Position numbers and translations under genes: made by a program
Shown here: in pieces, positions 17,088 to 36,564 of the stretch
How the letters are laid out: each line of letters begins with the position of its first letter
Numbering within the stretch: position 1 is the stretch's first letter
Assembly: GCA_039096225.1 (NCBI GenBank)
Contig: JBBPEB010000002.1
Span: forward strand, 1-64,000
Reading direction: 5' to 3'
Length of the DNA stretch: 64,000 bases
Source: Blastocystis sp. Blastoise
Lineage: Eukaryota; Protista; Bigyra: Opalinata
The notes under the pieces: generated by a model
What the model saw: only the letters and a program-made list of their open reading frames with translations
Told to the model about the DNA's origin: nothing
Database searches by the model: none

Positions 17088-17203
17088 ATTCTTCCGTTCT
17101 TCGAACTGCAGAAGGGGGTATGCAAACCCCGCATAGAGTCTGCGCGACGCGCGCAGCCATAAGCGGGGAAGTCATCCCCCCTTTTTGTTCTCGACGGAAG
17201 AAT
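17088..17203. other. 116-nt GC-rich imperfect terminal hairpin
   Basis: Arms ATTCTTCCGT/ACGGAAGAAT, GAAC/GTTC, AAGGGGGTATG/CATCCCCCCTT, CCCCGC/GCGGGG and CTGCGCG-ACG-CGCGCAG (apex 17147-17149). Identical at 42108-42223 and 61497-61612. Confidence 0.9.
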
Positions 17204-17807
17204 TAATAACATTTCTGAAGTAAAATAACCATGGGAGTGTAGGGTAGTGTGTGTGTATTTTTATTTTTCCCCATGTTTATTTATTTTTAATTTATTTGTG
17301 TTCCGATTCCAACGTGAAACGTAAAGTGATCAAGGAGAAACTCATAGTAATCATAAAAGAAATAAAATACACAGTCCAACCCTCCCCTTTACAGGGAATA
17401 TTCATGGGAAATGGCTCCATCGTTGGTAAAGTGAGTAAAATAATCACGGGAATACAGAAAGAAATACGAAAAGAAGCACAGAATGTGCTAAATAAGCACA
17501 CACCCCGACCCTCCCTTTATATAGAGAAAAGATGAAATGGATGGTTCTATCTAAAAAGAAATAATAAAAATAATCACGGGAATATATAAAATAAAAATGT
17601 ATGTATAGTGATCAATAAATAATATAAAAAGTCATGATAATCATAAAAAAATATATATAAAAAGAGTAAAGTGATCAAGGTATGTATTTATAGTGGGTGA
17701 AAGAAAAGCTGGTGGTGGTGTGGTCTTGTAAAAAGATGTACCCACCACCACGATTATAACGAGAGACTTTTGGAAACATGAGCGACCGTTATGGAAAAAT
17801 ATAAATT

Positions 17808-17845
17808 TTCGAGAACATTCTATAACATTCTCGAAACTTCTAGAA
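17808..17845. promoter_or_regulatory. Heat-shock-element-like array at inner TIR edge
   Basis: 8 alternating nGAAn/nTTCn pentamers (1 mismatch) about 46 bp upstream of the 17892 ORF. Confidence 0.65.
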
Positions 17846-17891
17846 TAATAAAATTGTATTATTCGTTTTTTCTATTTTTATACTATTTATT

Positions 17892-18059
17892 ATGGATTCT
17901 CCAAAGCAATTTGCTCCAGATTATAAAGAAGGCAATTGGAAACCTTATGGAAATTTTGAAGTTGATGAATTAAGTGATAGTGATTCTGAAATGGATACTA
18001 TTAAAACTGAAAGTGAGGATGATTATGAAGATTATATAAGAAATTTTATTGATTTTTAA
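17892..18059 (+). CDS. Small acidic viral protein (55 aa; below ORF-track cutoff)
   Basis: MDSPKQFAPDYKEGNWKPYGNFEVDELSDSDSEMDTIKTESEDDYEDYIRNFIDF*. Frame preserved with an in-frame indel in copy 2 (62438-62608). Preceded by an HSE array and followed by the 3' motif at 18087. Confidence 0.75.
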   Translation: MDSPKQFAPDYKEGNWKPYGNFEVDELSDSDSEMDTIKTESEDDYEDYIRNFIDF

Positions 18060-18133
18060 ATTAACGTTTATAAATAACAAAACAAATTGTTTAGTTTTTA
18101 AAAATAATAATAAATAAAACAAATTAAAATTAA

Positions 18134-19618
18134 CTAATGTTTTCTACGTTTATTTCTTAATTTTTTATTTTTTGAAATACGTCTTTTTCTACGTAATCCA
18201 TTACCTTCTTCGAGATCATAAAATACCTCACCATCATCTTCATCAAATGATTGAAATTCATCATCTTCTTTTTTATTTCTTTTATTTTCAAGAGTGACAT
18301 TTTCTACTGGATTAGAAATAGGTGCTACAGGTGTAATATTTGGAGTGAAATTATTCGTGATTGCTTGAGACATTGGAACAGTATCAGGTAAAGGAACAGT
18401 AGGATCATTCATAAGAGGAATTAAATTTGGAGGATTTGAATCTTCAATAGTAATATTATGAATATTTTCTTGTGTTAGAGTATCAGGAGTAGATGAAGAA
18501 GTTGGTATAACATTATTATTTGCTTCTATTGGATTTTTTGTTTGTGGTATTTCTTCCTCTGGATTCTTACCAAATAAAAATCCAGAAAAAGTATTGTATA
18601 AATTATTTACACCACTAACAACAGAGTTTGCAACTTTTTTAACACCATTAACAATTGGTGTTCCTACATTTGTTGCAGTATTAACAACTTTATTAACGAA
18701 TGTTGGGTTTTCTGCATAGGGAATATAATTATTATGAAATGTTTTTGCTTGATCTTCTAAAGATTTACTTTTGTTAAGTCTTTGTTGTTTCGTATCATTA
18801 CCTGACATATGAGCAAATCTAAAATAGTTATCAGCTAATAATTTATTCTTTTTCTTAGCTTCATTATCATCAGTTAATTTCCAATTATCATATAAATTAT
18901 TTCTATCACTTACAAGTTTTCCTTTAATATCATTGAATCCTTCTTTTGGATCAACATTAATATCTCTCCACCAATTCTTGAGATCTTTGAATTTATTTGC
19001 ACCATAATCAACAGCATTACTTATTCCATGAGTGATGTTATTAATACCTCCAGTTAATTTATCAGACACATTGTATACATCACTTACAGTGTGATAAATA
19101 TTAGAAAATAAATTACCACCTCTAGAATATAAGTAACCATCACGATCTCTTTTAGTAAAATCAATAGCACTATCAATTGTACGAGGATTTAATAATCTAG
19201 AATATTTAGAATAATCAGACATATGATTTTGTTTCATATAAGGTAAGACATAATCATGAGCATAAATAAGTTTTCTTGTAAAGTTCTTTGGAATTCTACC
19301 ATCAGGTAATAACCCAGATCCTTCATCTATTGGTTCACTTTCTTCTGATTCTTCTAATGAATTTTGTATAACATCTTGTCTGGTTTCTGACAAATATGAA
19401 TAGAATGGATTTGACGTTGCTCTATTAACCATATTACTTTCTATTCGCTTAACAGCAGCTAAAGAATTAGGAGCAATAGAATAATTAATTGGATGACGTT
19501 CTTCTCCATCAGGAATAGATCCTGGAACAATATAATTTCGATATTCATGACCAGTAGCACGATGATTTACGCCTACTAATCCTTTATTTGAAACATTTAA
19601 TCTAGCACTTTGTATCAT
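18134..19618 (-). CDS. PLV protein, putative protease-processed core/structural protein (494 aa)
   Basis: Intact ORF; homologue at 62677-64000. Motifs EGSGL, SRGGN and EGNGL followed by an Arg/Lys-rich C-terminal tail. Confidence 0.75.
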   Translation of the reverse strand: MIQSARLNVSNKGLVGVNHRATGHEYRNYIVPGSIPDGEERHPINYSIAPNSLAAVKRIESNMVNRATSNPFYSYLSETRQDVIQNSLEESEESEPIDEGSGLLPDGRIPKNFTRKLIYAHDYVLPYMKQNHMSDYSKYSRLLNPRTIDSAIDFTKRDRDGYLYSRGGNLFSNIYHTVSDVYNVSDKLTGGINNITHGISNAVDYGANKFKDLKNWWRDINVDPKEGFNDIKGKLVSDRNNLYDNWKLTDDNEAKKKNKLLADNYFRFAHMSGNDTKQQRLNKSKSLEDQAKTFHNNYIPYAENPTFVNKVVNTATNVGTPIVNGVKKVANSVVSGVNNLYNTFSGFLFGKNPEEEIPQTKNPIEANNNVIPTSSSTPDTLTQENIHNITIEDSNPPNLIPLMNDPTVPLPDTVPMSQAITNNFTPNITPVAPISNPVENVTLENKRNKKEDDEFQSFDEDDGEVFYDLEEGNGLRRKRRISKNKKLRNKRRKH

Positions 19619-19745
19619 TTAACTTTATTAAAAAAAAATATGACTCTTTTAACAAAACAAAAACAAAGAAATTTAAAAAAAAATAACTTTATACATATTA
19701 ATATACAATCAAACAATATAAATATATAAGTATAACATATTAGGT

Positions 19746-20744
19746 CTAGTTGGTATCTGGTGATTCATCGTTTTCACCATTTGTAATAGCATGTGTCTTA
19801 TCAAACCCACTTTCATATGCTTTAAGAAATTGTGGTACAGTCATCGTTTCATAACCCCAATCGAAATAACCTTTTTCGTTTGCTTGAACCTTTACTTGAT
19901 TCTTCTCATAAAGAAGTATCCATCCAAAGAATCTTGGATCTGAGGTAACGACTTCCTTTTTCTTTCCTTTATCAATGATAGTAAATGTTACACCTGAATC
20001 AAGAATATCATAATGAGTACCTTGATCTGTAACTGTTTTCTTAACATCTTCAACATCATTTTGACGATTCTTTTCATTTTTATCAATCTTATTATTCAAA
20101 TTCTTATTATCTTTTTGACGATTACTTTCATTTGAATCCATTTTTGCATTCATATTAGTATTATCAGCATGTAAATTATCGTAGTTAGTTTTCATATCCT
20201 TTTTTAATGAAGCTGTTTCAGAATGAAGATCAGCGTTATTAGTCTTCGTTTGATCGTAAATATTATTCAATTTAGAGTTTAATTCTTGTTGCGCCTTTGT
20301 ATAGTATTGATAGTTTTCTTTATTTTGTTCAAATGCTTGTGAATTCAATCCATTTAATCCTTGTATAGATGATAATAACGTTTCAAATTGATAATTATTA
20401 GGATTACTAGCATCATACCATATCTTACTTGTAGTAGGAATACCATAATTCGTTTGCCATTGAGATAACATAGATGAGTATCTTGCAGTATCTCCATTAG
20501 CTTTAGCTGAATTCATAGTAGCTATAAACATATCTTCAGGTGATTGACCATGATTTCTTAATGCTTGAACTGCCATTGAGCTATACATAGATCCTTGTGC
20601 ATTAGGATCATGTGCTAATGGTTGTACTGGTTGTTCATCTTGACAAATATATGAATTGGGTAACCATGGATCCCAAGATTGTTTTTTCTGATTTCTTGAT
20701 AAAATATCATAGAGAGTTACACTATCTCCTAAATTACTTTGCAT
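19746..20744 (-). CDS. PLV hypothetical protein with coiled-coil repeat (332 aa)
   Basis: Intact ATG ORF; internal repeat KMDSNESNRQKD/KIDKNEKNRQND. Confidence 0.75.
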   Translation of the reverse strand: MQSNLGDSVTLYDILSRNQKKQSWDPWLPNSYICQDEQPVQPLAHDPNAQGSMYSSMAVQALRNHGQSPEDMFIATMNSAKANGDTARYSSMLSQWQTNYGIPTTSKIWYDASNPNNYQFETLLSSIQGLNGLNSQAFEQNKENYQYYTKAQQELNSKLNNIYDQTKTNNADLHSETASLKKDMKTNYDNLHADNTNMNAKMDSNESNRQKDNKNLNNKIDKNEKNRQNDVEDVKKTVTDQGTHYDILDSGVTFTIIDKGKKKEVVTSDPRFFGWILLYEKNQVKVQANEKGYFDWGYETMTVPQFLKAYESGFDKTHAITNGENDESPDTN

Positions 20745-20820
20745 TATTTATTGTATTAATTTAAAAATAATTATATAACAAAACAAATAATTAATTATGA
20801 AATAATAAAAGTTAAAATAA

Positions 20821-21858
20821 TTAATTTAAATGAAATTTTTTTAAGAAGAATTGAACAAGATTAATAATTAAATTAGTAGTAGTATCAAAGGATGTAGAGT
20901 TGACAAGAGCACCACCACAACGTTCAGCATTCTCTTTTGTAACACCACTTCCACTAGGATTTTTAAAATAGTTATCAGCAGTTTCTTTACGTTTCTTATC
21001 ATCATCAGTAGTAATCATATTATAAGCGAAATCAATAGGGATACCAAGAGAAGGATAATAGTATTTTAATGCATTCACTACAATAGGAACAATCGTTTTA
21101 ATAGTTTTAATAGCAGTATTCGCAATAATAGAATGCTTTTGTTTTGGATCCATAGGATATTCTTTATCGATAACGACATTAACAATATCACGTACAGACA
21201 CATGCTCATCATTTTTAGGTAATCGTTCTTTAATATCTTGTAATTTCTTTCTATTAGACTTTACATTATTAGAACGAATAGCCTTCTTAGCAATAATTCT
21301 TATTTGAGGAGTTACGAATTTACTTGTTTTCTTTTCTTTTTCTCGGTGACTCCCATGTTCTTTACGATGTTTCTGATGCCTTCTATGTATACCTTGACCA
21401 AATATATCATCATAATTTTCATCTTCAAGATTTGCATTATTATAATCTTTATCATCATCAGCCATCATTTTTCTTGTTATTCTCTTTGGTTGATAAGTAA
21501 CATCATCGTTATATAATTCATCATCTCTATTAGCATCTTCAATATGTTCTTCAAATTGTCTTTTCTTTTCTTCTTTTGCTTTTTCTTGACGTTTTTGTTC
21601 TTTACGTTTCTGATAATAATTATATCCAGCAAATGCTCCTAATGTACCTAAAATAGGTAATGCAGTATAGACACCATTTTTAAAATCAGCCCAATCAGCA
21701 TCTCTAGTTTGTTGTCTAACAATTTCTTCAAAGCCTGTTCCTCCATATCTTACATAACGTTTATGATAAAGATCACGTCTATTTGATTTTGGTGGTGATC
21801 CTCCAAATAATCGTGGATCACAATTTTGTTTTAAATATCTTTTTGTAATTGAACTCAT
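20821..21858 (-). CDS. PLV putative membrane/core protein (345 aa)
   Basis: Hydrophobic helix GVYTALPILGTLGAFAGYNYY followed by a charged segment; GG/GxG motifs LFGGS, RYGGT, FGQGI, SGSGV, RCGGA. Confidence 0.7.
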   Translation of the reverse strand: MSSITKRYLKQNCDPRLFGGSPPKSNRRDLYHKRYVRYGGTGFEEIVRQQTRDADWADFKNGVYTALPILGTLGAFAGYNYYQKRKEQKRQEKAKEEKKRQFEEHIEDANRDDELYNDDVTYQPKRITRKMMADDDKDYNNANLEDENYDDIFGQGIHRRHQKHRKEHGSHREKEKKTSKFVTPQIRIIAKKAIRSNNVKSNRKKLQDIKERLPKNDEHVSVRDIVNVVIDKEYPMDPKQKHSIIANTAIKTIKTIVPIVVNALKYYYPSLGIPIDFAYNMITTDDDKKRKETADNYFKNPSGSGVTKENAERCGGALVNSTSFDTTTNLIINLVQFFLKKFHLN

Positions 21859-21911
21859 AACAAAACAATAAAATAATTATGGTTTATTTAACAAATTAAA
21901 ATATAAAAAAA

Positions 21912-22949
21912 TTAATGAAAAGAAGGATAACCAGAATAATGTTTTTTATTTAAATAAGGATTGAAAATGCGTCGTTGACTATCTTGTATGATTTGATCTT
22001 GTATGATTTGTAAGATGGATTCTTTAGGTTTATCTTTTTCATCTCGTTCAATACCTTTCAATGAGACTTCTTCTTCAACAGGTAAAAACTTCTTCATTTT
22101 CTTTTCATATGTAGATATATGTTCATTAGGACGTTTAATGCCACTACCTGATGCTTCACCTTGTTCTTCTCGTTTCTCTTTTTCACTATCTTCTTCTGTC
22201 CATTTTCGTTTCTTTACCATCTTATATACATTCTGTTTACTACCACAATCAGGATTAGTCCATATCGTTAAATCATCACTACCTTGTTTTAACATAAAGA
22301 ATTGATGTGGATCATTCATTAATTCTTCATCTGTAAGAATTTCATTTAAATTTGATGGCATAATCTTTAATTTATCTGGTAAGAATCCAGGATCACGTTT
22401 TAAGATTTGACTATTAATAAAGAAATGAGATACTTGACTTAATATAGATTGATTGGTAACATCTGTATGACTTTGAAGACATATAATAGCATTCTGTTTA
22501 TAATGACGACCTTTAGATAATATAGATACAATCAATTGTTTGGTTTGTCTAGATAATGGATAGATATCATCCAATACAATAAAATTATGTTCTGGTAATT
22601 TATATGTATTGACTAATTCATCAACAGTTTTAATCTTTTTAAATTTATCATCTACAGAATCATACCATTTATAATCAATTCCAGCATGTTCACAAATATC
22701 TTGAAAGGATGTATAACATTCATTCTTATTGGATGCATCAGGACAAATTACTGTGACTTGTTTATATTTATTTTTAAGATCCATGGAACATAAGAGATTC
22801 ACAGTTAAGAAAGATTTTCCTGAGAATGTTCTTGCAATAATCAATATAAATTTTGATTCATATGTTTTATGATGTGATTTTCCATATTTAAATTCTAAGA
22901 CTCCACATCCTTTACGTGTTTCTTTTAATGGATTTATTTTATTCACCAT
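21912..22949 (-). CDS. A32-like (FtsK/HerA) genome-packaging ATPase
   Basis: Walker A ARTFSGKS, Walker B FIVLDD, A32 signature SKGRHYKQNAIICLQS. Confidence 0.92.
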   Translation of the reverse strand: MVNKINPLKETRKGCGVLEFKYGKSHHKTYESKFILIIARTFSGKSFLTVNLLCSMDLKNKYKQVTVICPDASNKNECYTSFQDICEHAGIDYKWYDSVDDKFKKIKTVDELVNTYKLPEHNFIVLDDIYPLSRQTKQLIVSILSKGRHYKQNAIICLQSHTDVTNQSILSQVSHFFINSQILKRDPGFLPDKLKIMPSNLNEILTDEELMNDPHQFFMLKQGSDDLTIWTNPDCGSKQNVYKMVKKRKWTEEDSEKEKREEQGEASGSGIKRPNEHISTYEKKMKKFLPVEEEVSLKGIERDEKDKPKESILQIIQDQIIQDSQRRIFNPYLNKKHYSGYPSFH

Positions 22950-23019
22950 TTTATATGATTTTAATCAACAAAACAAAAAAAATAATTAATGATAAGTTAA
23001 AGATAAATAAATGATTTTA

Positions 23020-23700
23020 TTAAGATGCAGTAAAGTATATATAAAGATTTGTATTCGATAAATCAATTGGATTATTTAATTGATCATATATTTCCCATTG
23101 GATATCTGTATATTTACCATCAATACATGGAATAGATAAATCACTTAAAGCAAATGTATTATCAAATCCTTGTTTAGCATATAAAGGAATAGAAATCAAA
23201 TCATTATCTTTATTAATAATATCACAATACACACGTAACATATAGATCTTATACCATGAAATATTCTTGGATATATAATCATCAGTAAAAACGATAGGTT
23301 GGCTAGTATAATCCCAATAATAGGTTTTAATACCTAACAAATCAAACAATATTTTAGATTCATCTATTCTGTGTTGAGCATATGTTCCAAATGTTTTTGT
23401 TTCTTTATCATAATAATAAGCACAAGTCTTTCCATCTACTAATGATTTCATATTTTTTCCAATTTCAACAATTTTTTCTAAGAATTCTTCCAATGAATAG
23501 TTACCAGCTGGAAATGTATATTTTTGAAATGGGATAGATGCGGTATCATACAAAAGAAATTCAGGAATATTAATGATATCACTTGTATTCACTAATGTAT
23601 TGATATGAGTAATATTTTTACCTACTAAATCCAAAGTATAATTGAATTGTTCATGACAGATTTGACTTGTAATTTTACTTAGATGAGATATTGATGTCAT
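23020..23700 (-). CDS. Minor capsid protein (penton, single jelly-roll)
   Basis: FPAGNYSLEEF, LRVYCDII and C-terminal DIQWEIYDQLNNPIDL match Polinton/PLV penton motifs; lies between ATPase and MCP. Confidence 0.75.
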   Translation of the reverse strand: MTSISHLSKITSQICHEQFNYTLDLVGKNITHINTLVNTSDIINIPEFLLYDTASIPFQKYTFPAGNYSLEEFLEKIVEIGKNMKSLVDGKTCAYYYDKETKTFGTYAQHRIDESKILFDLLGIKTYYWDYTSQPIVFTDDYISKNISWYKIYMLRVYCDIINKDNDLISIPLYAKQGFDNTFALSDLSIPCIDGKYTDIQWEIYDQLNNPIDLSNTNLYIYFTAS

Positions 23701-23799
23701 TTTTATTAAATGAATTAATTATGAAATTATAAACAAAACAATATTTTTTTTAGAATAATATAAAGTTGATACAAATAATAAAAATATCAAATAAATAAA

Positions 23800-25017
23800 T
23801 TAATTGGTAGCACCATCTCTAACAAATTTAACAAATATAAAATGAGCATATAAAGTATAAGGACCAGTAACAGTTCCACCAGTATATTCAGTTAATAATG
23901 AGATATTAACTTCACAACCACTACGCGTATTGACATCAACAACACTTGAAATAGGGAATATATAAATAGGTTGTTCATACCACTTTTCACCATTTAAAGG
24001 AGATTGAGGATGACTATTACATCTCCAAGTATTATAAAGCATAGCATTAGGGATAATTTGTGATGGATTCGTTGTTTTATACGTAGTAGGGAAATCCGTC
24101 TTTGGTAAGATATTTTGACCACCAATTTGGAATTGACATGATTTTAATAATTCAGTTTTAATAGGAATCATGCTCTTCTCTTGATTTGTGAAGTATAACA
24201 TACAATAATCAGGTACGAAAACAACACTTCTATTGGATAAGAATTGTTGTGGAGTTGGTGTACCTGATACTGATGCTTGTGAATAAACAGGTGTAGTGAA
24301 TGCAGATATCTGACAATTATTAGGAATACATTTAATCAAAGCACGTGGATCATTACCAAAATTAATATCATAGATTTGTTGAAGATGAATATAAACACGA
24401 TCAAATTTCAATGCAGTGATTACAGTGGTACCGGTAAATAGATTCTTTAAATAATTTGTAACGAATTGCATCTTCAAAGATTTTACTTTAATAGCATAAT
24501 CAAATGTACCAAGACCAGTAATAAGAGATAAAGGAATAATAACTTGAGCTTTTTCTTTCATTTCCATTCCAGCAATACTACTCAACGTGTTATTATATAA
24601 GCATTCTGTCATACTATACATAGATTTATCAATTTCATCTTTACTTAATTCTTTAATAGTAACAAATTTTCTTGCTTTACTGGATTCAATAGAAGATTCA
24701 GAATAATTAATAAGAATATCTTGACCAGTAGGAGATACAAACGTAAGATCTGTAGTAATTTTATCAATAATACTATAGATATTAGAATGTTGTACAACAG
24801 AACTAGTTGTAGCTGCATTTGTTGTAATATTGAAATTCAGTTCTAAGAATGAATTGCTGAAATCAATAAAAGGACTATCCACTGAATTATATAAGAATTC
24901 AAATGGATAAGGTTGATTTAATAAATCTTGACTTGTAGAAACTAGAATAGGAATTTGTACAGGTTTAATAGTTTGATTTGCCTTTGAAGGTAAGAATTGT
25001 CTTGGGAATCCTTCCAT
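23800..25017 (-). CDS. Major capsid protein, double jelly-roll, paralogue A (405 aa)
   Basis: N-terminal PFIDFSNSFLELNFNIT is typical of Polinton/PLV MCPs; beta-rich; size and synteny fit. Confidence 0.75.
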   Translation of the reverse strand: MEGFPRQFLPSKANQTIKPVQIPILVSTSQDLLNQPYPFEFLYNSVDSPFIDFSNSFLELNFNITTNAATTSSVVQHSNIYSIIDKITTDLTFVSPTGQDILINYSESSIESSKARKFVTIKELSKDEIDKSMYSMTECLYNNTLSSIAGMEMKEKAQVIIPLSLITGLGTFDYAIKVKSLKMQFVTNYLKNLFTGTTVITALKFDRVYIHLQQIYDINFGNDPRALIKCIPNNCQISAFTTPVYSQASVSGTPTPQQFLSNRSVVFVPDYCMLYFTNQEKSMIPIKTELLKSCQFQIGGQNILPKTDFPTTYKTTNPSQIIPNAMLYNTWRCNSHPQSPLNGEKWYEQPIYIFPISSVVDVNTRSGCEVNISLLTEYTGGTVTGPYTLYAHFIFVKFVRDGATN

Positions 25018-25194
25018 GTTAATAATTATTGTTTATATATATTTTTTTTAACAAAATAAAAATAAATAATAATAATATTTTATAATTATTAATTAATTTT
25101 AATTTTTATAACAAAACAAATGATTGTATTATAGAATAGAATAGAATTAATTAAACAAGTTAACGTTAAGAATAGTAAGTAAGAAATATTAAAT

Positions 25195-26688
25195 TTAAAT
25201 ATCACGCACACTACGTACAGCAATCATATGTAAGGTATAAGGAGAACTATCACTTAGATCAGTAGTAGTATGTTTATAAATACCAGCATGAGAAGCTACC
25301 GTATAAGAGGCAGTATCAGCTTCCCAGTGATATTTTGTCTTTTTATCTGTTGGATCAACGTAACTTTTCCATTGACACGTTTGTCCATCAGGAACAGTGG
25401 ATGAATCAATATGTTCATATTTAACATCATGAACATCAACATTACAATCGAAATTCAATTCAATACCACTATCTGATTGGATATTCATTAATGATTTTGT
25501 TGGAATAATATAAATAGGATGTTTAATCCATTCATCATATTTAAGAATAGTTTCAGGATTTGAATTATCAGCCCATAAACAATATAAATTCTTATTAGGA
25601 CAAGATAAACTAGTAGTTTCTGCATTATTGAAGACATGACCTTTTGTAGTAAGATTATGATAATACATTTGAGTAGGGAATTCAGTTTGAGGGAACATTT
25701 GAACATCACCAATCAAACAACTTTGATATGTTGGCCATACATTTGGACTAGCTATATTACTAATAGTTGTTGAACTATAACCATTTGTAAACCAAAATAA
25801 TATATATTCAGGTATAAATGGTAAAGCTCTATTGATATTGAAATGATCACTAGTTATTCTTGTATTTTGATAATCGACTTGAATACATGTAGGTATAGTT
25901 TTATATAATTCATTCGTTTGGAATTGAATATCTTTATAAGTCATTAAATTCATAGTAGCTGATTCCAATTCAAATGTCTTAAACCATTTTTCATCAGTTA
26001 GATGTAACCATTGTGTTGATAGATCTTTACCACCATTCTTGAAATAAATACTCATATTATTATCAATTAAGGATTCAATTGTACTTGTTCTAAATAGCAT
26101 ATTGAAATGTTTAGTTAATATTAATGAATCTCCATCAACACCTAAACCACTAATAAGATATAAAGGAATAGCAATATGAATAGATTGTTTTGGATGTGCA
26201 CGTATATAACGAATAGAATTCAATTCATAAGTATCTGCAGATAAATCCTCACCATACATAGATTTTTCTAAATCATTCTTACTGATATCTTTTAATAAAA
26301 TCATTTTACGACCACGTGAAGCATGTGTACAGTTTTCTTCATATTTTAAAGCACGATCGGATCCATCAGGTAAAGTATAAACCATTTCAACATCAGTGGA
26401 ATCAATAATAGAATAAATATTTGCTTTTTGAACTAATTGATCCAAGAAATATTGACATAATTGATCATAAGTGAAACTAACAGAAGTACCTGTTTCATCT
26501 AAATAAACAGAAACTGGTCCAGCTTTATCTGTTACAGTTGCCTTGACAGTAAGATCCAAATAGGATTGATTGAAATTGATATAAGTATTATCCACATTAG
26601 TCCAATGATATTGAAAGATATAAGGACTTGATAGAATATCAGTATCACTTTGAATAGGAATATTATCTTTAATTCTTAAGATTCTCAT
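25195..26688 (-). CDS. Major capsid protein paralogue B (497 aa)
   Basis: Colinear with 23800-25017: YINFNQSYLDL, NIYSIID, KSMY, IPLxLIxGLG, F(I/V)P(E/D)Y, P(Q/K)T(E/D)FPT, PIYIxP, PYTL, plus extra insertions. Confidence 0.75.
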   Translation of the reverse strand: MRILRIKDNIPIQSDTDILSSPYIFQYHWTNVDNTYINFNQSYLDLTVKATVTDKAGPVSVYLDETGTSVSFTYDQLCQYFLDQLVQKANIYSIIDSTDVEMVYTLPDGSDRALKYEENCTHASRGRKMILLKDISKNDLEKSMYGEDLSADTYELNSIRYIRAHPKQSIHIAIPLYLISGLGVDGDSLILTKHFNMLFRTSTIESLIDNNMSIYFKNGGKDLSTQWLHLTDEKWFKTFELESATMNLMTYKDIQFQTNELYKTIPTCIQVDYQNTRITSDHFNINRALPFIPEYILFWFTNGYSSTTISNIASPNVWPTYQSCLIGDVQMFPQTEFPTQMYYHNLTTKGHVFNNAETTSLSCPNKNLYCLWADNSNPETILKYDEWIKHPIYIIPTKSLMNIQSDSGIELNFDCNVDVHDVKYEHIDSSTVPDGQTCQWKSYVDPTDKKTKYHWEADTASYTVASHAGIYKHTTTDLSDSSPYTLHMIAVRSVRDI

Positions 26689-26781
26689 ATTTCTTTTTAT
26701 TTTAAATAAATATTAATAAATAAATAAAATTAAATAATTTTTATAAATTAATATAAATTATTATTTTATAAATTAGAAAAT

Positions 26782-29267
26782 ATGGAACTTGATGATGATA
26801 ATTATGAAGAACAGACTTCATTAGAAGAGAAGGATACTCGTATTAAAACACATGTAGTCCCTATTGATGTTCATTGTATTGATAATCAATTCAATATACA
26901 TTTATCGAATTCTATTGATATCACTAAAAATATCATTTCTTATATTGATCTTAATTTAATTGGTAGTGAAAGTGTGCCTCTATTTGATACATTCACAAAA
27001 ACACAAATATTCAAATATATAAATACTCGTGTTAATGGAAATAATAACAAATTCAAACAATCACTTTAGATCAGAAAAATTATTCAATTCCACAATTATT
27101 AGAACTATGTCATTTTGATATATGTGATAGGCCATTAATAAGTGAATCTCCTGATATCGATTCTACTGTTAAAATTAAGAAAATTCCAACAATTACAATT
27201 AATAGAGATGATTTTTATTGTGAATTTTATATTGCTAAAACAAGACGTGGTTTTAATTTCCCAAAAGGAACTTATACAGATATAGAATTTTGGTGGATCG
27301 CTGTTTGTTTGGTATCTTCTGTATGGTTAGATAACAAAAATCGACTGATGATGAAATATGATGATGATAATATAATATTATATCGACCCAAAACAACTTC
27401 TTTTCCTATTCCTGTTAGAACAACAGGGACTTATTCATTAAAAGAATATGCAAATAATGGTGTATTTAGTAAGTTCATTCATGATATTCCTACACAAAGT
27501 AGTGATGGAACAATTCAATGTGTAATTAATGAAGAACATGATTTTTATTTTCCAAATGTAACTTCTCCAAATATAAATATGATTCTGAAAATGGAAAATA
27601 GTTTATTTACTGGTTTATTTGACGGTAATGGAACACTAATACACACTGGAAATAAACCAGAAATTGTTTTACAAAGAATTAAGAATCCAGTTAAACATGA
27701 TGATATATTTAATATCAAAACATTAATTACTGTTGAAGATGGATATAATACAATGATTGTTCGACAATTGAGTGGTTATGATGGTGTTCATGAAACTACA
27801 TTCACTGTTCCTCCAGGTGACTATATTGAAGACGAATTCTATGATTTATTAGAAAGTTCAATCAATAATACAATTTATACTGATTATTTAAATATATCCA
27901 AAGATGCTCAAACTATGGACGATAAGGATGGATATATTTTATATTTATCATTTCAAGATATTGATTCAACATCATGGACATTTACAGCTATGGATATAGA
28001 GCACTCCTTATTTAAGTATCGTGGTGCTCTACATAATATACGTCCTGATTTAGTTTATGATGAACAAGGATGTTTTGCTTGGCATGTATCTTATGGTAAA
28101 CAATTATTACCAGATACACCTGTTGATTTGAATACATTAGATTTAGATGGTAATTATAAGTGTTATACTGATAGTCATCATATAGATTTCTCTCAAGCTC
28201 AAGAATTAGGTGAAATCTTAGGTTATAATAAATTAGGTCATGATGAAATTGTTAATTATGGTGTTCATAATATTGATAGTAGTCGTCCAAAAGGAATGTT
28301 AATAGCTCAATCGAATATAGTAGATAATAGTCAGAATTCTTTATATTCATTCAATGTGAATAATTATAAAGGCAATAATGAATTTCATGATATTATGAAT
28401 ATTAATGTGTCTCCTTATTTAAATACTATTCAAGATATTATTATACGATATACTGATAAAAATAAACAATATGTGAATTTCAATAATAATTGTATTTTAA
28501 GAGGATTCTTAGAATTCTCAGATACAGTCGATACGATTCAACCTAGTGAAACCATTAAGAAATTATGTTTGAATTGTTTAACAGCAGACACACAATTCTA
28601 TGCTGAATATCCTACATTGAATATCCAGAATAAGATCTTAAAAGATATTATTATTCAGAATGATACTGATACGATCCAAACAAATGCATCTAAATTATGT
28701 ACTGGATATATAAATGGATCTTATTATCCTACATTTAGTTTTCCTTTATCTGATAAATATGTTACATATAGTAATATAAATTCTCCAATCACCATTGATC
28801 ATCATATAGATTTAAGATTTGATGAATTATTCAAAGGAAATATCATTTGTAATATATGTGAACCGAATGGTAGTGATATACGTTTCAAAGCTTATGATGA
28901 AGTATATTGTGATTTTAGTACGAGTAAGAATTTAATTTATGAATTGAAGAAAACCAATGTCTATGGATATCAATATTTAACTAATATACAAATTATATCA
29001 GTGTATGGTCAATCCACTGATTACTTATATCCTATTTCATTAAGATGTTTTACTAATGAATATGAGAATAATATTCATGTTATTGATACTACAAATCTAC
29101 CTTATTACTATTCTAATGGTATTAAATATGAAGGTATATCAAATAAGATCAATAAGAATGTTTATTATTGTAATCGTAAATTATTAAAGTTATTACCTCA
29201 TGATAATATGTTCTTTATTACTTGTGATTATCCTTGTGTTGTTTTATTAACTATCTCTTATATATAA
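26782..29267 (+). CDS. Large penton-like/spike protein (~828 aa if joined), split by a frameshift near 27048-27069
   Basis: The downstream frame is open from 27048 with no ATG until ~27345 and overlaps the end of ORF 26782-27069. Penton-like motifs ITLDQKNYS, FPKGTY, VPPGDY, DIIIRYTDKNKQYVNF. No 3'-end motif between the parts. Confidence 0.6.
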
Positions 29268-29335
29268 ATATTTTAATTCATTTCATTTAAATTAAAAATG
29301 TTTTGTTATATTATTCATTTAAAAATTATTAAAAA

Positions 29336-29758
29336 ATGGAGCCTAAATCTGTATCTGAATCCTTACATTCTTTATCAAGTACAAGTTCAACAAGTTCAGA
29401 TAGTTCAACAACAACCACATTATCCGAAGAAGAAATAGAAAAGAAAAATACTTTATTAGAATTTATTATAAAAGCTATAAAATGTTTATTTGAGAAATCA
29501 ACTGAATTCTTTCAATTAATTGTTAAAAATATAGATATTCATTGTAATTGTTGTAATCCACAAACAAAGAAAGTCTATTATAAGACAATGAAAATACAAC
29601 AAACTATTATAGAAGAAGAAGTCAAACATATATCTGAAGTCTTGAATGAATTAGAAGAAATCGATTCTAATCAAAATGAATCAATACAAGAATTAGCTGT
29701 TCAATTAATGAAATTAAATATAAGTGTTGATTCTATTGTTCAATCTCTTCATTTATAA
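29336..29758 (+). CDS. PLV hypothetical protein (140 aa)
   Basis: Intact ATG ORF with Ser/Thr-rich N-terminus, HCNCC and helical C-terminus; 3' motif at 29793. Confidence 0.7.
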   Translation: MEPKSVSESLHSLSSTSSTSSDSSTTTTLSEEEIEKKNTLLEFIIKAIKCLFEKSTEFFQLIVKNIDIHCNCCNPQTKKVYYKTMKIQQTIIEEEVKHISEVLNELEEIDSNQNESIQELAVQLMKLNISVDSIVQSLHL

Positions 29759-29825
29759 TTCTATGAAATGTTATAAAATATTAATAATAAATTTGTTTTG
29801 TTTATAAATAATTTAATTTTTAATA

Positions 29826-31622
29826 ATGCAATCAACAGGTTATTCAGATAAAGATTGTGAAGAATTCTTTACAAATTGTATAGATCAATTATTACATTGG
29901 AAGAAAATACAATTATCAACAAGTATAAATTGGAAGAAATGGATAAAGACAATATGTAAGAAATTTCGTAATGAAGAACGAATTCAAATAGATGATATGG
30001 AAGAACCATTCTTTTGTGTAGAAGTGTTAACAGATCCATTTCAATTTCAAAATGTTATGCAACATACACAAACAGAAGCTCCTGGACAACAAGGTAGATT
30101 ATCCAATACTACTGTAGCTAATTATATGCAAATGATTACTTATATAATGAAAAATATATCTATTTGTACAGATGATGAAGATATCATTAATTATAAAGCA
30201 TTTACTCCACAAAATATAAAGAAATGGGAACATTTATGGGGTTCTTTACAAATTGATGCTACTTATTCAAGACATTATGAAATCACTCAGAAAATTATTA
30301 ATTGTGAAGCTGATTGGGGAGAAATCATTAATATCACCAAAAAGAATTATTTAGAGAATCCTAATGATTTATATTATGTGAATAGTTATTTATTAGTTTT
30401 AACTTATGATACATTATGTGCTCGTAATGATTATAATGATTGTGTAATCTATACTCGTGGTCAACAAATTCCTTTATCGTTAAGAAGAACAACCAATTAT
30501 ATTGATTTAAATACTTTGACTATTCATGTGAATGATACAAAGAATCGATTTGAAATTGGTAAGAATGAATATCCTACTTATCAGTATTTATCAGAAGAAT
30601 ATTTAAATGTCTTAGCTAGATCCTTACGTTTATTTCCAAGACATTATTTATTTGTTACTGAGAATGGTGGTAAAGTACGTGATTTGAAATTTGGTGATGA
30701 ATATATAAAACCTCATTTAGGATGGATTTATAAAACACAACAGAATAATTCTTTAATTAATGGTTGTGATATTATAAGACATTTATTTGCTCAATATTAT
30801 TATAGATTATCAAGAGAAGCACAATTCCAACATGATGATTCAGAACATGAATCTAAAGGTGTAGAACTCTTTGAAAATTCTATTATGAAGATGTTACACA
30901 GTCAATCAACACATATGGAAAATTATATATCTCCTTATTTATCTTCTCATTCAACTAAATTGCAAGATTTAGATAATAAAACAAGAACATTTCATATTGA
31001 TATGAATAATATTACTTATACAAGAGAAATTAATCAATTGAATAAATTATTATTTTTATGTAAACGATTTAATGATCGTATAGAACAATATGAAGAAGAC
31101 TATGAAGATGTATTTGGTAAAGAGAATTTCAATATGAAATCAGAATCGATATTATCTACATTAGAACAATATTCATCAGATAATGATACTATAATGATTA
31201 CATTAAGATATTATAAAGATCTATTAAAGCATCATTATCCAGATAAAACAGATTTAGAAAATGAATTACCTGTAGGATGTTCATTAGAATCTGAAGAAGT
31301 CCCAGAGAATTCTAGAGATCGTTATAATCGTTTTATACGTAATAAACAATTATTACCTGATCATTTACATAATAATACAACAGATTCAGAATTAACGAAT
31401 ACTCAAGCATCTCTTATGCAACAGAATACCCAAGATGAAAACTCTACACCTATAGTTATGAATAATTCAGATACTTATGCATTACGTAGTCTTTCTACTA
31501 TGCCTCCTTTAGACCCTATTCATCGGGGTCATGGTTTATTGAAAAAACATAAAGGTAATGCATTCTTTAAAGTCAAAGTCCCTAAAAAACATTTTCATGG
31601 AATTCAATTTAAATTTTATTAA
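29826..31622 (+). CDS. Tyrosine recombinase-family protein, large (598 aa)
   Basis: Catalytic series LCARNDY (R), NDTKN (K), CDIIRHLFA (xxxR), MLHS (H), THMENY (Y), colinear with ORF 40432; long C-terminal extension. Confidence 0.75.
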   Translation: MQSTGYSDKDCEEFFTNCIDQLLHWKKIQLSTSINWKKWIKTICKKFRNEERIQIDDMEEPFFCVEVLTDPFQFQNVMQHTQTEAPGQQGRLSNTTVANYMQMITYIMKNISICTDDEDIINYKAFTPQNIKKWEHLWGSLQIDATYSRHYEITQKIINCEADWGEIINITKKNYLENPNDLYYVNSYLLVLTYDTLCARNDYNDCVIYTRGQQIPLSLRRTTNYIDLNTLTIHVNDTKNRFEIGKNEYPTYQYLSEEYLNVLARSLRLFPRHYLFVTENGGKVRDLKFGDEYIKPHLGWIYKTQQNNSLINGCDIIRHLFAQYYYRLSREAQFQHDDSEHESKGVELFENSIMKMLHSQSTHMENYISPYLSSHSTKLQDLDNKTRTFHIDMNNITYTREINQLNKLLFLCKRFNDRIEQYEEDYEDVFGKENFNMKSESILSTLEQYSSDNDTIMITLRYYKDLLKHHYPDKTDLENELPVGCSLESEEVPENSRDRYNRFIRNKQLLPDHLHNNTTDSELTNTQASLMQQNTQDENSTPIVMNNSDTYALRSLSTMPPLDPIHRGHGLLKKHKGNAFFKVKVPKKHFHGIQFKFY

Positions 31623-31666
31623 TTTTAAAACAAAACAACTTTTTATAATAAAAAATAAATATAAAT

Positions 31667-34600
31667 TTAATTTGGTATAGCATATAAAGTATTATCTATT
31701 AAAATTCGTTTTGTTGATGACGTATTATGATATTGATCTTCACTATAAACAATTTCTTCTTTCTTAGATAAACAATTGGATAAACAGAATAAATCTGTAT
31801 CCACACAATTATTATAAGTATTATCAATCATTAAACCACAAATACCAATAGCATTCCCTCCCTTATAGAAATTTGAAGTATGTTTTCTATGAATATTCAC
31901 AATATCTATAGAATTAAATGTATCTTTACTACTTAAACAACCAAATAAAGCATTTGTAAATTTATCTAAATCTTTCTTAATCGTAAATTGATTATTATTA
32001 TTCACTTTCTTATAACTATTAAAAATATCTTCAATAGTAACTACATTCAAATAATAAGGATCTATAGTAATATGGTTATCAACAAAAGATTTCAAATCAT
32101 ATCCTTCTGTACTACGATCAAAGAATCGTTTCTTACATTCACTTATATGATATTCATTATCTAATTCATGCATATCTAATTGCATACTAGAATAGAAATA
32201 ATTACTTACTAGATAACTAAAGATAATTGAACGATTCTGATAGAATTTATCGGATAGAGTATAATCCATTTCATAATGATTTGGTTTCAATCTCTTTTCT
32301 ACTGTCTGTTTACGTTTCGGTAAATTATGATCTACATAATCTTCATATAAATTAGCATTACCAGGAGGGAAATAACGACAACATGATGGTAAGAAACAAA
32401 CTCTTCTTTCAATAGGACCAGCATTCACAGCAGTAGGTTGGATATTACTTGTCATAAATAAAGTACCCGTGAAATGAACTTTTGTAAATATATTACTGAA
32501 TAATTTACGAGCACTAGCACCTTCTTTCTTTTCTGCTATTTCTTTAAAGACTTTAGAAGAGAATGGATTGAATGTTTTCTTTCTACCAGTAACATCTTCT
32601 TCTATTAATTCATTCATATAATACATAGTCTTATTAGACATATCTACAATCTTAGGAGCTATAGATGTTTCTTCTAAATTATCTGGATTTACTATAATAC
32701 ATTGATTACTACCTACAATACGAGAAATTAAATCAGTTGTTATTGTTTTACCATTACTACCTGTACTACCATATAATATATAAGAAACAGTTTTCTGAGT
32801 ATTGACATAGAAAGCAGTGGTTAGGATACGTAACATAATACTTTCATATTTCTTATCGAATTCACAATATCTTGCATAATGTTGTTCAAATAATTGGATA
32901 ATATCTTTCTGTTCATTATTAATATTCCAACTTACATTAAATTCAGTATCAATTAATAAATCTTCAAATACCATATCTTCTTTATGATATGGTTGGATAT
33001 AATATTGTCTAGGATCTTCTTCTGTAGATTCTTTTGGATATAAATAACCAAGTTGTGTATAGATAACACGTTCTTTATGAACCATATACGTATCTAAATA
33101 TTCTTTATAAGATTTACCATAAGTCTTCAAATAACGATTCAACCATTCTTTATAATGATATTCATTAGTAACAGAAGCAGACATTATTTTATCAACTATT
33201 TTTTGATGTTGTTCATTCTCTTTGGAATATAATCTTGATAGTTTGAATTTCTCTACAATCGATTTCATAAATGTAGTTATTTTGGTTTCAAAGAAATTAA
33301 TATCATAATTATTCTTACAACGTCTTAAGATATTATATTCATCAAATGTATATAAGATAAAATTATCTTTATCTAATATAATAGAAACAATTTCATTAAA
33401 TTCTAATAATTGAAATAACATAACTAATGTTTGTGAATCTACAAGATTAAAGGATTGAATACATTCTAAAATAGACATAAATATGAAATCATTATCATCA
33501 TCTTTATTAAATAATTTATTCTCCATTAATATCTTCAAAATATAATTATTCGATAAATGAGTAGGATCAACTTGTATATGATTCCATGTAGATTCAATTA
33601 CATCATCACTTCGATCATGGCCATAACGTAATGAATAATTTTTAAATAATTCTAATCCTCTTGTTGTATTACAAATCTGTTTTGCTGCACAACATAATTT
33701 ATACCAAGTATTATGAGATTCAAAATAATTCATATCTTCAATAGAACCAATCAATAATAAATATCGTTCTAATAAAGCTTCTTTAGATGCTGTAGTATCC
33801 AATATAGTATCTGTAGAAATCAACATAGGAATATCTTTAATATCTTGTATAGAACATAATATAGTACGTGAACAATTATTTAATCTTTCATAATAACGTT
33901 TATAACGTGAATATTGTTTTAATTTATAAAAGATAATAGGATTAATAATATCACTTATAAGATCATCTTCATTCTTATAATTCAATAATGTTTTGAAATA
34001 ATAATGTTCATTGATTTCGCCTTCTATTTTCTTCCATGATTTATTGGTATATTCTTCATATAATTTATAAGTAGATGGAGAATTATCTTTACTACAACCA
34101 AGAAACATACAACCATTATTCTTTCTGGGTTTACCAATAACATTATAATCAATGAATTCTTTTATATCTAAATTATATGTTTTACATAAATCAACCAATT
34201 TGGTATTCAAAATCATACTATTATATAAGAAAAATAAATAATCACCATTTACAAACCAATTTGTATATATATGAATTCCCCATGAATAATGTATTTCATT
34301 ATGAACTGTCTTCTTATTCACTTCTTTCTTTGTATACACAAGCGAAATAAATTCTTGATTATAATAATGAATACAATGATTACATATTTCTTCAATAAAT
34401 TCATGAATAAAAGAATCTGTTAGAAAAGAAAAATCATTTGATATTTGGTGATAATCTAAATCAAACCATAATCTTCTATAATTAGTTGATGTATTACAAG
34501 GAGTACAATCAATATAATGTAATAATTCTTTTGGATTTTGATAATTAGTAAATAGACTTTTATAAAATGGTAATGGATTTGGTATAATAATTTCACTATG

Positions 34601-34669
34601 ATTATCTTTTGAATTATCATGATTAAAGGAACCAAAAGTATAAACAAAATGAATTTGTGAATTTTCCAT
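31667..34669 (-). CDS. AEP primase - PriCT-2 - D5/SF3 helicase (~1000 aa)
   Basis: AEP motifs LWFDLD, GIHIY, FID. PriCT-2-like NTWYKLCCAAK...LELFKNYS. Walker A YGSTGSNGKT, YYMNEL, LFMTSN, IERRV. First ATG at 34669. Confidence 0.9.
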   Translation of the reverse strand: MENSQIHFVYTFGSFNHDNSKDNHSEIIIPNPLPFYKSLFTNYQNPKELLHYIDCTPCNTSTNYRRLWFDLDYHQISNDFSFLTDSFIHEFIEEICNHCIHYYNQEFISLVYTKKEVNKKTVHNEIHYSWGIHIYTNWFVNGDYLFFLYNSMILNTKLVDLCKTYNLDIKEFIDYNVIGKPRKNNGCMFLGCSKDNSPSTYKLYEEYTNKSWKKIEGEINEHYYFKTLLNYKNEDDLISDIINPIIFYKLKQYSRYKRYYERLNNCSRTILCSIQDIKDIPMLISTDTILDTTASKEALLERYLLLIGSIEDMNYFESHNTWYKLCCAAKQICNTTRGLELFKNYSLRYGHDRSDDVIESTWNHIQVDPTHLSNNYILKILMENKLFNKDDDNDFIFMSILECIQSFNLVDSQTLVMLFQLLEFNEIVSIILDKDNFILYTFDEYNILRRCKNNYDINFFETKITTFMKSIVEKFKLSRLYSKENEQHQKIVDKIMSASVTNEYHYKEWLNRYLKTYGKSYKEYLDTYMVHKERVIYTQLGYLYPKESTEEDPRQYYIQPYHKEDMVFEDLLIDTEFNVSWNINNEQKDIIQLFEQHYARYCEFDKKYESIMLRILTTAFYVNTQKTVSYILYGSTGSNGKTITTDLISRIVGSNQCIIVNPDNLEETSIAPKIVDMSNKTMYYMNELIEEDVTGRKKTFNPFSSKVFKEIAEKKEGASARKLFSNIFTKVHFTGTLFMTSNIQPTAVNAGPIERRVCFLPSCCRYFPPGNANLYEDYVDHNLPKRKQTVEKRLKPNHYEMDYTLSDKFYQNRSIIFSYLVSNYFYSSMQLDMHELDNEYHISECKKRFFDRSTEGYDLKSFVDNHITIDPYYLNVVTIEDIFNSYKKVNNNNQFTIKKDLDKFTNALFGCLSSKDTFNSIDIVNIHRKHTSNFYKGGNAIGICGLMIDNTYNNCVDTDLFCLSNCLSKKEEIVYSEDQYHNTSSTKRILIDNTLYAIPN

Positions 34670-34755
34670 GATTATTTGACTTATAAATAATGAAAATAAA
34701 TATGGTATAAAATTCAAAACAAATAATATATTAAAGATTCTAGAAGTCAGTTTTG

Positions 34756-34904
34756 GAAGCTTCTAGAACATTCAAGAACCTTCTAGAACCTTCTAGAACA
34801 TTCTATAATAGTAAATATTACTTTATATTTTAAATGTTCTAGAACCTTCTAGAACCTTCTAGAACCTTCTAGAACCTTCTAGAACCTTCTAGAACCTTCT
34901 AGAA
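34756..34904. promoter_or_regulatory. Two long heat-shock-element arrays upstream of the primase-helicase
   Basis: 34756-34803: 10 alternating GAA/TTC pentamers. 34837-34904: TTCT(AGAACCTTCT)6AGAA, 14 perfect pentamers. Confidence 0.7.
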
Positions 34905-35014
34905 CATCCTTTTTATACTTTAGTGTTTTAAATGTATATACAATAAACAAAACAATTTTCAATGATTTTTTACAAGTTTATAAGTAAAAATAGAAAAATA
35001 AACAAGAAAAATAA

Positions 35015-35638
35015 TTAAATTTCAATTGGTTCTTGACTATTAATATATGTACATGAATGAGGCCATCCATTTTTATCATATAAAATACCATCCCAGAAAT
35101 ACATTTGTTTTGAAGGATCTCTTTTAATCTTGTTAATACTCTTAGCATGAACAACTTCATAAGAATAAACTTTACCTTTTTCATCATAAAGAAATCCATC
35201 TTCCATATGGAATTTCATAATATCAAAATCATCATCTTTAGAGTTCGAATGTTCTTTAGAATCTTCAGAACATAAAATAGTAGTTCTATCACTTTCTAAA
35301 AGATCTTCAGTATTGATAATATCTTGAATATCTTGTTCTTCATTAAGTTGTTGAGTATAAATATCAGCAGCGAATTCTTCATAATCTTCAAGACCTTTAA
35401 TAACCGCGTTTATACGTTTTAAAGCTGATCTATAGTTTTCGACTTCGAAAGAAGCAAGACGTTCTTTAGATTTTGCAATACCCAATAGATTCTTTTCTCT
35501 ATTCAATTGAGACTGATGTAAATCAATATCACGAAGAACATTCTTATGAACTTCAACAGCCTTCTTAGAATTCTTAAGAAGTTCCATACGAACAGTTTGA
35601 AGACATTTACGGGAATCAGCAGAAAGATTAAATTGCAT
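35015..35638 (-). CDS. PLV hypothetical coiled-coil protein (~207 aa)
   Basis: ATG at 35638 (MQFNLS...); 4-unit HSE at 35750-35767 upstream; 3' motif at 34946. Confidence 0.7.
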   Translation of the reverse strand: MQFNLSADSRKCLQTVRMELLKNSKKAVEVHKNVLRDIDLHQSQLNREKNLLGIAKSKERLASFEVENYRSALKRINAVIKGLEDYEEFAADIYTQQLNEEQDIQDIINTEDLLESDRTTILCSEDSKEHSNSKDDDFDIMKFHMEDGFLYDEKGKVYSYEVVHAKSINKIKRDPSKQMYFWDGILYDKNGWPHSCTYINSQEPIEI

Positions 35639-36036
35639 TATAATCGCGAATATCGTTACAGAGAGAAAATTTGTATTTATCAAAATGAAATAAATAATAC
35701 ATTTAAATGGAATATTAAATATTCTAGGAGACAGTGTAGAATCTCTATGGAATGTTCTAGAAGGTTCATTTGATTGGCTAATTTTGTCGACTTAGCATTT
35801 AGTATTTGTGTTTCAATGACGAGCATAGTCGGCATCTGTAATCTGATTGGATAAAAAAATTAGTAAAACACAATTAGACGATGACGACGATGTGTCATAC
35901 GAAATAAGTTATTTTATTGGCTTATTTTCCAGCTGGAAGCAATAGGCTTTTGTTAGCAACTGAAATGAAGAACTGTACACTAAAAATAGTATATTTAATA
36001 TATTGTATAAAAATACTTTTGAAGGTTTAAATAATC

Positions 36037-36564
36037 ATGGAAATTCCTGATAGTCTTTCTGCCAGTTTATCCCCTTTCGGTCAAGCCATGATATCCCCCT
36101 TGTTGAATCCATTTGAAAATAGTGTTTCTGCAAATCCTATGGCTTTACCCAATGATAATGATTTCTGTTTTAATTCGCGTGACGAAATCATGTTTGAAGA
36201 TCCACCTCAAGATATTCATCCAATCAATGATGTTTACGTATCTAAAAATCCAGATAGATATCATTCGGTTAACAATCAACCAATACAATTTCAAGATCAA
36301 GTAAATACAAATCCTGATAAGCAAGCATTATTATTTACAAATGAGGAGTTAACAAATATATCCAGTCAATTCGAATCTTTATTTCAAACTATTGAAACAG
36401 CTGATAATATATTAAATGGTATTTATTGTACTGTTGATCATTTAAAAACAAAGATTGAAAGTCAGAAACAAGATTTGAAACAGATTCATGATGATTCTAA
36501 AGAAATTGTTTCATTATTATCCGAATATTCTATTTCTTCTATGTCTGAAATATTTGATCATTAA
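36037..36564 (+). CDS. PLV hypothetical acidic/coiled-coil protein (175 aa)
   Basis: Intact ATG ORF, divergent from 35638 across a promoter with several ATTGG (CCAAT) boxes; 3' motif at 36588. Confidence 0.7.
   Translation: MEIPDSLSASLSPFGQAMISPLLNPFENSVSANPMALPNDNDFCFNSRDEIMFEDPPQDIHPINDVYVSKNPDRYHSVNNQPIQFQDQVNTNPDKQALLFTNEELTNISSQFESLFQTIETADNILNGIYCTVDHLKTKIESQKQDLKQIHDDSKEIVSLLSEYSISSMSEIFDH

Follow-up and report, generated by a model that had tools for sequence, protein, structure and literature searches.

How Polinton-like viruses (PLVs) that combine long terminal inverted repeats (TIRs) with a tyrosine recombinase (YR) integrate and replicate is a question for which the literature, in the parts available, assumes circular forms, notes that target-site duplications are missing and finds the link between YRs and primase-type replicases elusive. 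The question is raised anew by a 64,000-bp stretch of the Blastocystis sp. Blastoise genome, hereafter the window, in which a virus-like element ends in a GC-rich sequence that can fold back on itself. A preliminary description of this locus had proposed that a linear genome with hairpin ends is joined to AT-rich host DNA at the base of the hairpin. We asked what the fold-back is, which enzymes accompany it and how the ends could have been joined to the chromosome.

A fold-back sequence marks the ends of the element

Element 1, a Polinton-like endogenous virus of 25,136 bp (17088..42223), is bounded by TIRs of 758 bp that differ from each other by 1 mismatch (left, 17088..17845, plus strand; right, 41466..42223, minus strand). 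A second element begins at 61497 on the plus strand and is truncated by the window end (61497..64000); it is 98% identical to element 1 in the TIR and 82-85% in the interior. The outermost 116 nt, which we call H, match letter for letter at element 1's left and right ends (17088..17203, plus strand, and 42108..42223, minus strand) and at the left end of element 2 (61497..61612, plus strand). The preliminary description had reported the same fold-back in the same isomer at all three termini, with identity ending at the base of a 10-bp stem, and both points held. One and the same isomer is present at 3/3 termini of the window, identity among them stops at the stem base, and the three flanks diverge from the first base outside ATTCTTCCGT (a, c and t). 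H marks the exact ends of a multicopy YR-type Polinton-like element. Because the isomer count comprises three ends, two of them from one element, and would be reached by chance with a probability of 0.25 under a 50:50 mixture, the single isomer is compatible with flip/flop.

When positions 17080-17212 were folded as single-stranded DNA, the predicted free energy was -36.4 kcal/mol (z -7.15), and that of the other strand was -40.4 kcal/mol (z -9.53); on either strand, 0 of 200 shuffled sequences folded as strongly. When 2,203 segments of 116 nt from the whole 64 kb were ranked by fold strength, the first three places went to the three termini. The predicted fold contains 39 Watson-Crick pairs and runs, from the base inward, through a 10-bp stem, a 4-nt bulge, 3 bp, a 7x7 loop, 7 bp, a 1x1 mismatch, 3 bp, a 4x4 loop, 6 bp, small mismatches and a 7-bp GC stem to a 3-nt loop at the tip, which in the left copy is 17147-17149. 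H has a GC content of 55%, against about 23% in the host; the preliminary description had likewise called it a GC-rich mismatched hairpin. The mismatches are not scattered along H but grouped into bubbles (17 runs, p 0.003), in a test that is biased because the ladder was taken from an energy-minimised fold. At the 17088 end, fold-back pairing extends 5 bp into the flank, an extension that the other two ends lack. The hairpin starts with a short direct repeat (17089-17103, TTCTTC twice), which accounts for the 4-nt bulge and would permit slipped pairing of the outer stem. Elements 1 and 2 have 0 differences in H and 13 in the 710-bp TIR alignment, which is not a significant excess of conservation (p ~0.1). 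A search of Rfam gave one weak chance match, outside H.

Gene content of the element

Element 1 has the size of a PLV (25,136 bp, in a range of 14-40 kb), the long TIRs (758 bp) and a place in a protist genome; it also has a likely A32/FtsK-type packaging ATPase and, as its replication and integration module, a primase-helicase plus YR. The ATPase candidate (21912..22949, minus strand) is a P-loop protein, likely of the FtsK/A32 type, with a Walker A motif, a match to phrog_2666 (E 1.1e-10) and a weak FtsK match (E 0.049). Its gene adjoins two capsid-like genes on the same strand. The product of the first (23800..25017) is a candidate major capsid protein. In the ESM Atlas it resembled viral clusters with a score of 0.97, and PF21738 (DJR-like) is present in 10% of the members of one of them, which offers a lead only to a double-jelly-roll identity; no sequence match to it was found in Pfam, PHROG or PDB. 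The second (25195..26688) is adjacent and encodes a paralogue with 35% identity. A primase-helicase of 1000 aa (31667..34669, minus strand) contains a DxD motif and matches phrog_1156 (DNA primase, E 6.3e-9); we take it to be, as is likely, of the AEP and D5/SF3 type. Candidate ORFs for a minor capsid protein and a maturation protease had no match in Pfam or PHROG.

The preliminary description had also recognised neither pPolB nor an RVE integrase, and the same result was obtained here: neither motif occurs in 99 six-frame segments of at least 50 aa, and Pfam and PHROG gave no match, in scans whose sensitivity is limited since they also missed both YRs and left several ORFs unassigned. Membership of the Maverick/Polinton group was rejected on this negative, with its limited sensitivity, and on the lack of a 5-6-bp target-site duplication (TSD). 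Nothing in element 1 was recognised as a DNA polymerase or as a convincing HUH nickase; the one HUH-like motif falls within a segment of 78 codons that overlaps a 207-aa ORF of the same strand, out of frame with it.

Several genes of the element have arrays of a 10-bp unit (TTCTAGAACC-like) upstream of them, and such arrays also lie at the inner boundary of the TIR (34713-34937, 36725-36853, 17798-17862, 41456-41520 and 62345-62409). They are possibly promoter or protein-binding repeats.

Two paralogous tyrosine recombinases

YR1 (311 aa; 40432..41367, minus strand) is encoded beside the right TIR, and YR2 (598 aa) at 29826..31622 on the plus strand. The catalytic residues of YR1 are R156, K197, R265, H288 and Y297; in an alignment of 111 sequences the first three are invariant and the last two nearly so. 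Position 266 of YR1 is a lysine, where nearly all relatives have a histidine. YR1 has 834 relatives at E values up to 0.001, 21/111 members of its alignment match PF00589, and it matches an integrase in PDB with an E value of 5.7e-5. By hhalign, YR2 is related to the YR1 family with a probability of 96.9 (E 1.9e-10), and its R, K, R, H and Y motifs are all present. Judged by their sequences, both proteins belong to the tyrosine recombinase superfamily, with its catalytic R, K, (H)xxR, H/W and Y.

The predicted model of YR1 (pLDDT 96.5; an earlier model from 9 sequences was poor, with a pLDDT of 46, and was discarded) has the fold of Cre, XerA and lambda Int in a comparison with PDB. Cre ranked first (TM 0.57) and the protelomerase TelA 29th (TM 0.38), and the closest proteins in BFVD were those of giant viruses. 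The analogy with protelomerases that had been drawn earlier is weak, because the YR1 model resembles TelA less than it does Cre, XerA and lambda Int and because the hairpin is mismatched. Membership of the protelomerases was rejected for YR1, the one YR compared, since TelA ranked below Cre, XerA and lambda Int in likeness to its model.

The junctions with host DNA

A scan for duplications of 2-12 bp, with the ends shifted by 0-2 nt, left the terminal AT as the only possible duplication, in agreement with the earlier statement that a 5-6-bp TSD is lacking and that AT is the most that could be duplicated. A TSD of 8 bp was rejected, as the flanks agree at 4/8 positions. Element 2 sits inside a 488-bp tandem repeat of about 3 copies, 73-78% alike (60100-61496). 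Two upstream copies match the 61497 flank through GTGGAT and then differ at 2/3 bases; at the place equivalent to the junction these paralogues carry TA and TG, not AT, which weakly favours an origin of the AT from the element rather than the host, the repeat copies being just 73-78% alike. Short near-repeats are present at two junctions: GAAT is followed by GAAT at 42223, and 61494-61496 departs from the paralogous repeat. For the flanks of element 1, no paralogue was found within the window. A transposase-like gene lies 850 bp from element 1 (43078-46355, minus strand); it has a weak DUF4218 match (E 0.0017), presumably a link to CACTA, and is broken by a long TATATAA-type repeat. No inverted repeat tying the flanks of element 1 to this gene was found.

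At the base of H, positions 17194..17221 (plus strand) form an imperfect arm-spacer-arm palindrome of 28 bp (10-8-10 or 11-6-11), whose left half is the inner arm of the stem: ACGGAAGAAT is followed by an 8-bp spacer and a body-side arm. Arm-spacer-arm is the layout of YR core sites, and the palindrome is a candidate for such a site. Read as 11-6-11, it matches at 7/11 arm positions, and a score of at least 7 is reached at 7/731 TIR positions; these statistics are weak, the palindrome having been noticed post hoc.

At each terminus, host DNA stands directly after ACGGAAGAAT on the strand whose 3' end lies there. This polarity at the 3' end of the stem, also noticed post hoc, is the one that YR chemistry needs. 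Over the three ends, the 8 host bases that adjoin the stem agree with the spacer of the element itself at 14/24 positions (null mean 8.4, p ~0.015). For 6 bases the match is 10/18 (p 0.10) and for 7 bases 11/21 (p 0.06), and with these values, a post hoc comparison and n = 3, the likeness between host and spacer is just a hint. The reading that the junctions retain the 6-bp spacer of the element was rejected (10/18, p 0.10).

Copies and relatives of the element

The protein cluster of YR2 has 21 members (20 with a name) and that of the primase-helicase 19 (18 with a name). All names listed are Blastocystis sp. Blastoise, on contigs of 0.5-2.2 Mb, and these counts point to about 20 recent, near-identical copies of the element family. 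The same assembly also contains further subfamilies of the element, at least two in number and more divergent (ATPase 53-77% and YR 30-40% identical).

Metagenomic relatives share 42% identity in the YR, 84-87% in the ATPase and 50-52% in the helicase. Their longest listed contigs reach 27.5 kb and are often about 23.7 kb; the unique part of element 1 measures 23.6 kb, and contigs of ~23.7 kb would fit either free genomes or collapsed TIRs. Close relatives are frequent in metagenome assemblies, with single proteins on 134, 94, 41 and 89 contigs, and suggest a widespread, undescribed virus group. A hairpin pattern search of viral_contigs gave 0 matches, and protein-based scans of viral_contigs, metagenome_contigs, genome_contigs, phages and plasmids yielded no relatives. 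A scan for distant YR homologues gave 5 loci from 8 pattern matches, on large-virus contigs (4/5 named GVMAG); at these loci no fold beyond -17 kcal/mol occurs in the first or last three segments, which are not element ends, and the homologues are too distant for this result to bear on H.

How the ends could be joined to host DNA

The explanation that we favour, with a probability of about 0.45, is that H is a folded hairpin telomere, which the element's own YR would cut at the base of the stem and link to host DNA. In its free form the genome would be linear, with both ends closed by the mismatched hairpin; if the ends were closed in this way, the body arm, the 8-bp spacer and the 10-bp stem would together make up one YR core site. 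Bound to the stem, a YR would cleave after ACGGAAGAAT and keep that 3' end as a phosphotyrosine, and the attack of a host 5'-OH on the phosphotyrosine would produce the junction that the 3'-ending strand shows at either end. H would then be copied onto both strands by repair synthesis across the hairpin. The same cut, made on both strands of the replicated head-to-head junction and followed by a strand swap, would remake the hairpin ends, so that one site and two paralogous YRs could serve telomere resolution and integration alike.

This reading accounts for the finding that at 3/3 termini the element ends on the base of the fold-back and the inner arm is continued by the TIR. YRs are able to recombine folded single-stranded DNA by one strand exchange that replication resolves (PMC5027507), mismatched hairpin ends are known in Nucleocytoviricota (PMC12085832), and in polisuviruses YRs accompany AEP/PolA replicases for a reason called elusive (10.64898/2026.10.13.758929). 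The earlier proposal is supported in part, by the lack of a recognised pPolB or RVE, by two YRs with their catalytic residues and by a junction right at the base of the hairpin in the YR polarity; its analogy with protelomerases is weak and that with attC fails on sequence.

Several observations fit joining of folded ends less well. Resolution by replication only of a two-strand exchange would leave H at one end per daughter, so that an extra repair step must be assumed for element 1, which has H at both ends. A single staggered cut of 8 bp in the target would predict an 8-bp TSD, and the flanks agree at 4/8 positions. Resolution of the replicated junction would yield both isomers, and one was seen (3/3). 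The predicted YR1 structure is not protelomerase-like (TelA rank 29 versus Cre rank 1), and YR-encoding PLVs are assumed to circularise (PMC12220804).

It is possible, although we regard it as doubtful, that a circular form is excised and integrated by ordinary duplex YR recombination at the outermost bases, with AT as the core or with short heteroduplex coupling sequences. H would then be a replication origin or packaging signal that merely lies at the end, and the second YR may linearise the palindromic junction of the circle. Such recombination would need no isomer switching, in keeping with 3/3 ends in one isomer, and would leave H at both ends without extra repair; the AT is the only formal duplication, and the YR1 model is Cre-like. 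In phaeoviruses, whose YRs use a CC core of 2 nt to integrate circles, there is a separate telomere resolvase too (PMC13236599), and YR-encoding PLVs without TSDs are presumed to circularise (PMC12220804). The lack of TSDs is already the rule for the latter (PMC12220804), and by itself it is therefore no argument for hairpin ends over a circle. However, recombination of a circle leaves unexplained why the element ends exactly on the base of the fold-back and why a second, inner core-like site is present. Given the TIRs, closing such a circle would create a perfect palindrome of ~1.5 kb at its junction, and the repeat copies paralogous to the 61497 flank have TA and TG instead of AT, a weak point given copies that are 73-78% alike.

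A rolling-hairpin mode is distinctly unlikely. In this case the linear genome would have open ends, its 3' strand would fold back and prime as in parvoviruses, a YR or host enzyme would nick the base, and the unfolded duplex ends would be inserted into AT-rich DNA by the YR or by host end-joining. Terminal resolution in AAV leaves ends exactly at the hairpin base. Ends at this position are the expected product of terminal resolution, and the near-repeats at 42223 and 61494-61496 could be scars of end-joining. Such a mode has been proposed for the palindromes that terminate PLVs and virophages lacking pPolB in Halocafeteria (10.64898/2026.07.28.741278). However, neither a DNA polymerase nor a convincing HUH nickase was recognised, the primase makes self-priming less necessary, and 3/3 ends intact to the base would be unusual for end-joining. 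Finally, it is highly improbable that H is fortuitous, decayed or an artefact of assembly and has no role in mobility, as the non-significant excess of its conservation over the rest of the TIR (p ~0.1) would allow, given the strength of its fold (z -7.15 and -9.53; top 3 of 2,203), three independent and different flanks, and mismatches that set it apart from the mirror-perfect fold-back of a read artefact.

If the element's YR does join folded ends, YR recombination on folded DNA would extend from bacterial integrons to a eukaryotic virus, and the ends of PLVs would be linked to the hairpin telomeres of large DNA viruses. If, in addition, the free genome is closed by hairpins, a linear genome would be integrated by a YR without any circular intermediate. 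We consider it conceivable, with more doubt than confidence, that there is a whole family of gut-protist viruses with linear genomes closed by GC-rich mismatched hairpins, in which a paralogous YR pair acts at one hairpin-base site to resolve telomeres and to splice folded ends into chromosomes. The 28-bp candidate site, the two intact enzymes and the ~20 recent copies in a culturable host genus make the question directly testable.

Comparison with known systems

The element family is apparently undescribed. The literature searched, largely open-access papers, describes neither element 1 nor a YR-only PLV with mismatched hairpins at its ends, and the word 'polinton' has 0 occurrences in the available text of the Blastocystis assembly paper (PMC10690189). 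The Blastocystis MELD virus shares the host genus, the medium size and divergent virion genes with element 1 and differs in having PolB and an integrase (PMC8502044).

The PLVs and virophages of Halocafeteria seosinensis resemble element 1 in their stramenopile host, in palindromes at the TIR extremities and in replication genes other than pPolB, and hairpin priming has been proposed for them (10.64898/2026.07.28.741278). They have RVE integrases, adjacent TSDs and, in subtype 5, a 52-nt palindrome, and the available text states that the two integrase types do not occur together in these PLVs (10.64898/2026.07.28.741278). In contrast, element 1 has a 116-nt, heavily mismatched fold-back, no recognised RVE, no TSD and two YRs.

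With the YR-encoding PLVs (cryptophyte cluster C1, PMC12220804; TsV S2x, 10.1101/2025.10.09.676808; entomopoxvirus PLVs, PMC11296320), element 1 shares a size of 15-30 kb, long TIRs, an MCP (a candidate in element 1), an ATPase, a primase-helicase beside a YR and the lack of a regular TSD. One YR is described for these PLVs, whereas element 1 has two paralogues. In their available text, 'hairpin' is absent from PMC12220804 and 10.1101/2025.10.09.676808 and is used in PMC11296320 for poxvirus telomeres only; the latter reports sequence common to the inverted repeat of a PLV and the TIR of an entomopoxvirus, and suggests YR action on poxvirus-type ends (PMC11296320).

Poxvirus/ASFV-type telomeres are not joined to host DNA, whereas H is GC-rich and known here in integrated form only. 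These hairpin telomeres are AT-rich, are resolved by a Holliday-junction resolvase and occur as flip/flop isomers. Like H, they are incompletely paired fold-backs of ~100 nt that end long inverted repeats (PMC12085832). The endogenous phaeoviruses, with their N15-type resolvase, are also eukaryotic DNA viruses that integrate by a YR with minimal homology and have a second YR-fold enzyme, and a linear form with closed ends has been proposed for them (PMC13236599). Unlike in element 1, whose YR1 model is not TelA-like, attP and telRL are separate in phaeoviruses, telRL has an internal position and the ends do not consist of long TIRs (PMC13236599).

Integron attC sites and CTX phage share with H an imperfect hairpin with bulges and unpaired loops and an enzyme of the YR fold, and selectivity for strand or isomer is possible (PMC5027507). 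The attC analogy of the preliminary description applies to shape only, in the 4-nt and 1-nt bulges and the internal loops of the predicted H fold. It fails on sequence: attC requires an RYYYAAC/GTTRRRY box (PMC5027507), no such R box forms the outer stem of H, and membership of the attC sites was rejected. The attC cut lies inside the fold, beside the spacer (PMC5027507), and the H junction at the outer base; one end is joined in attC, whereas two ends must be joined in element 1. Terminal palindromes, in RVE-type PLVs, and YR PLVs without TSDs have each been published already. What is new is to find the two together, with two intact YRs and a long, mismatched hairpin that has a core-like site at its base.
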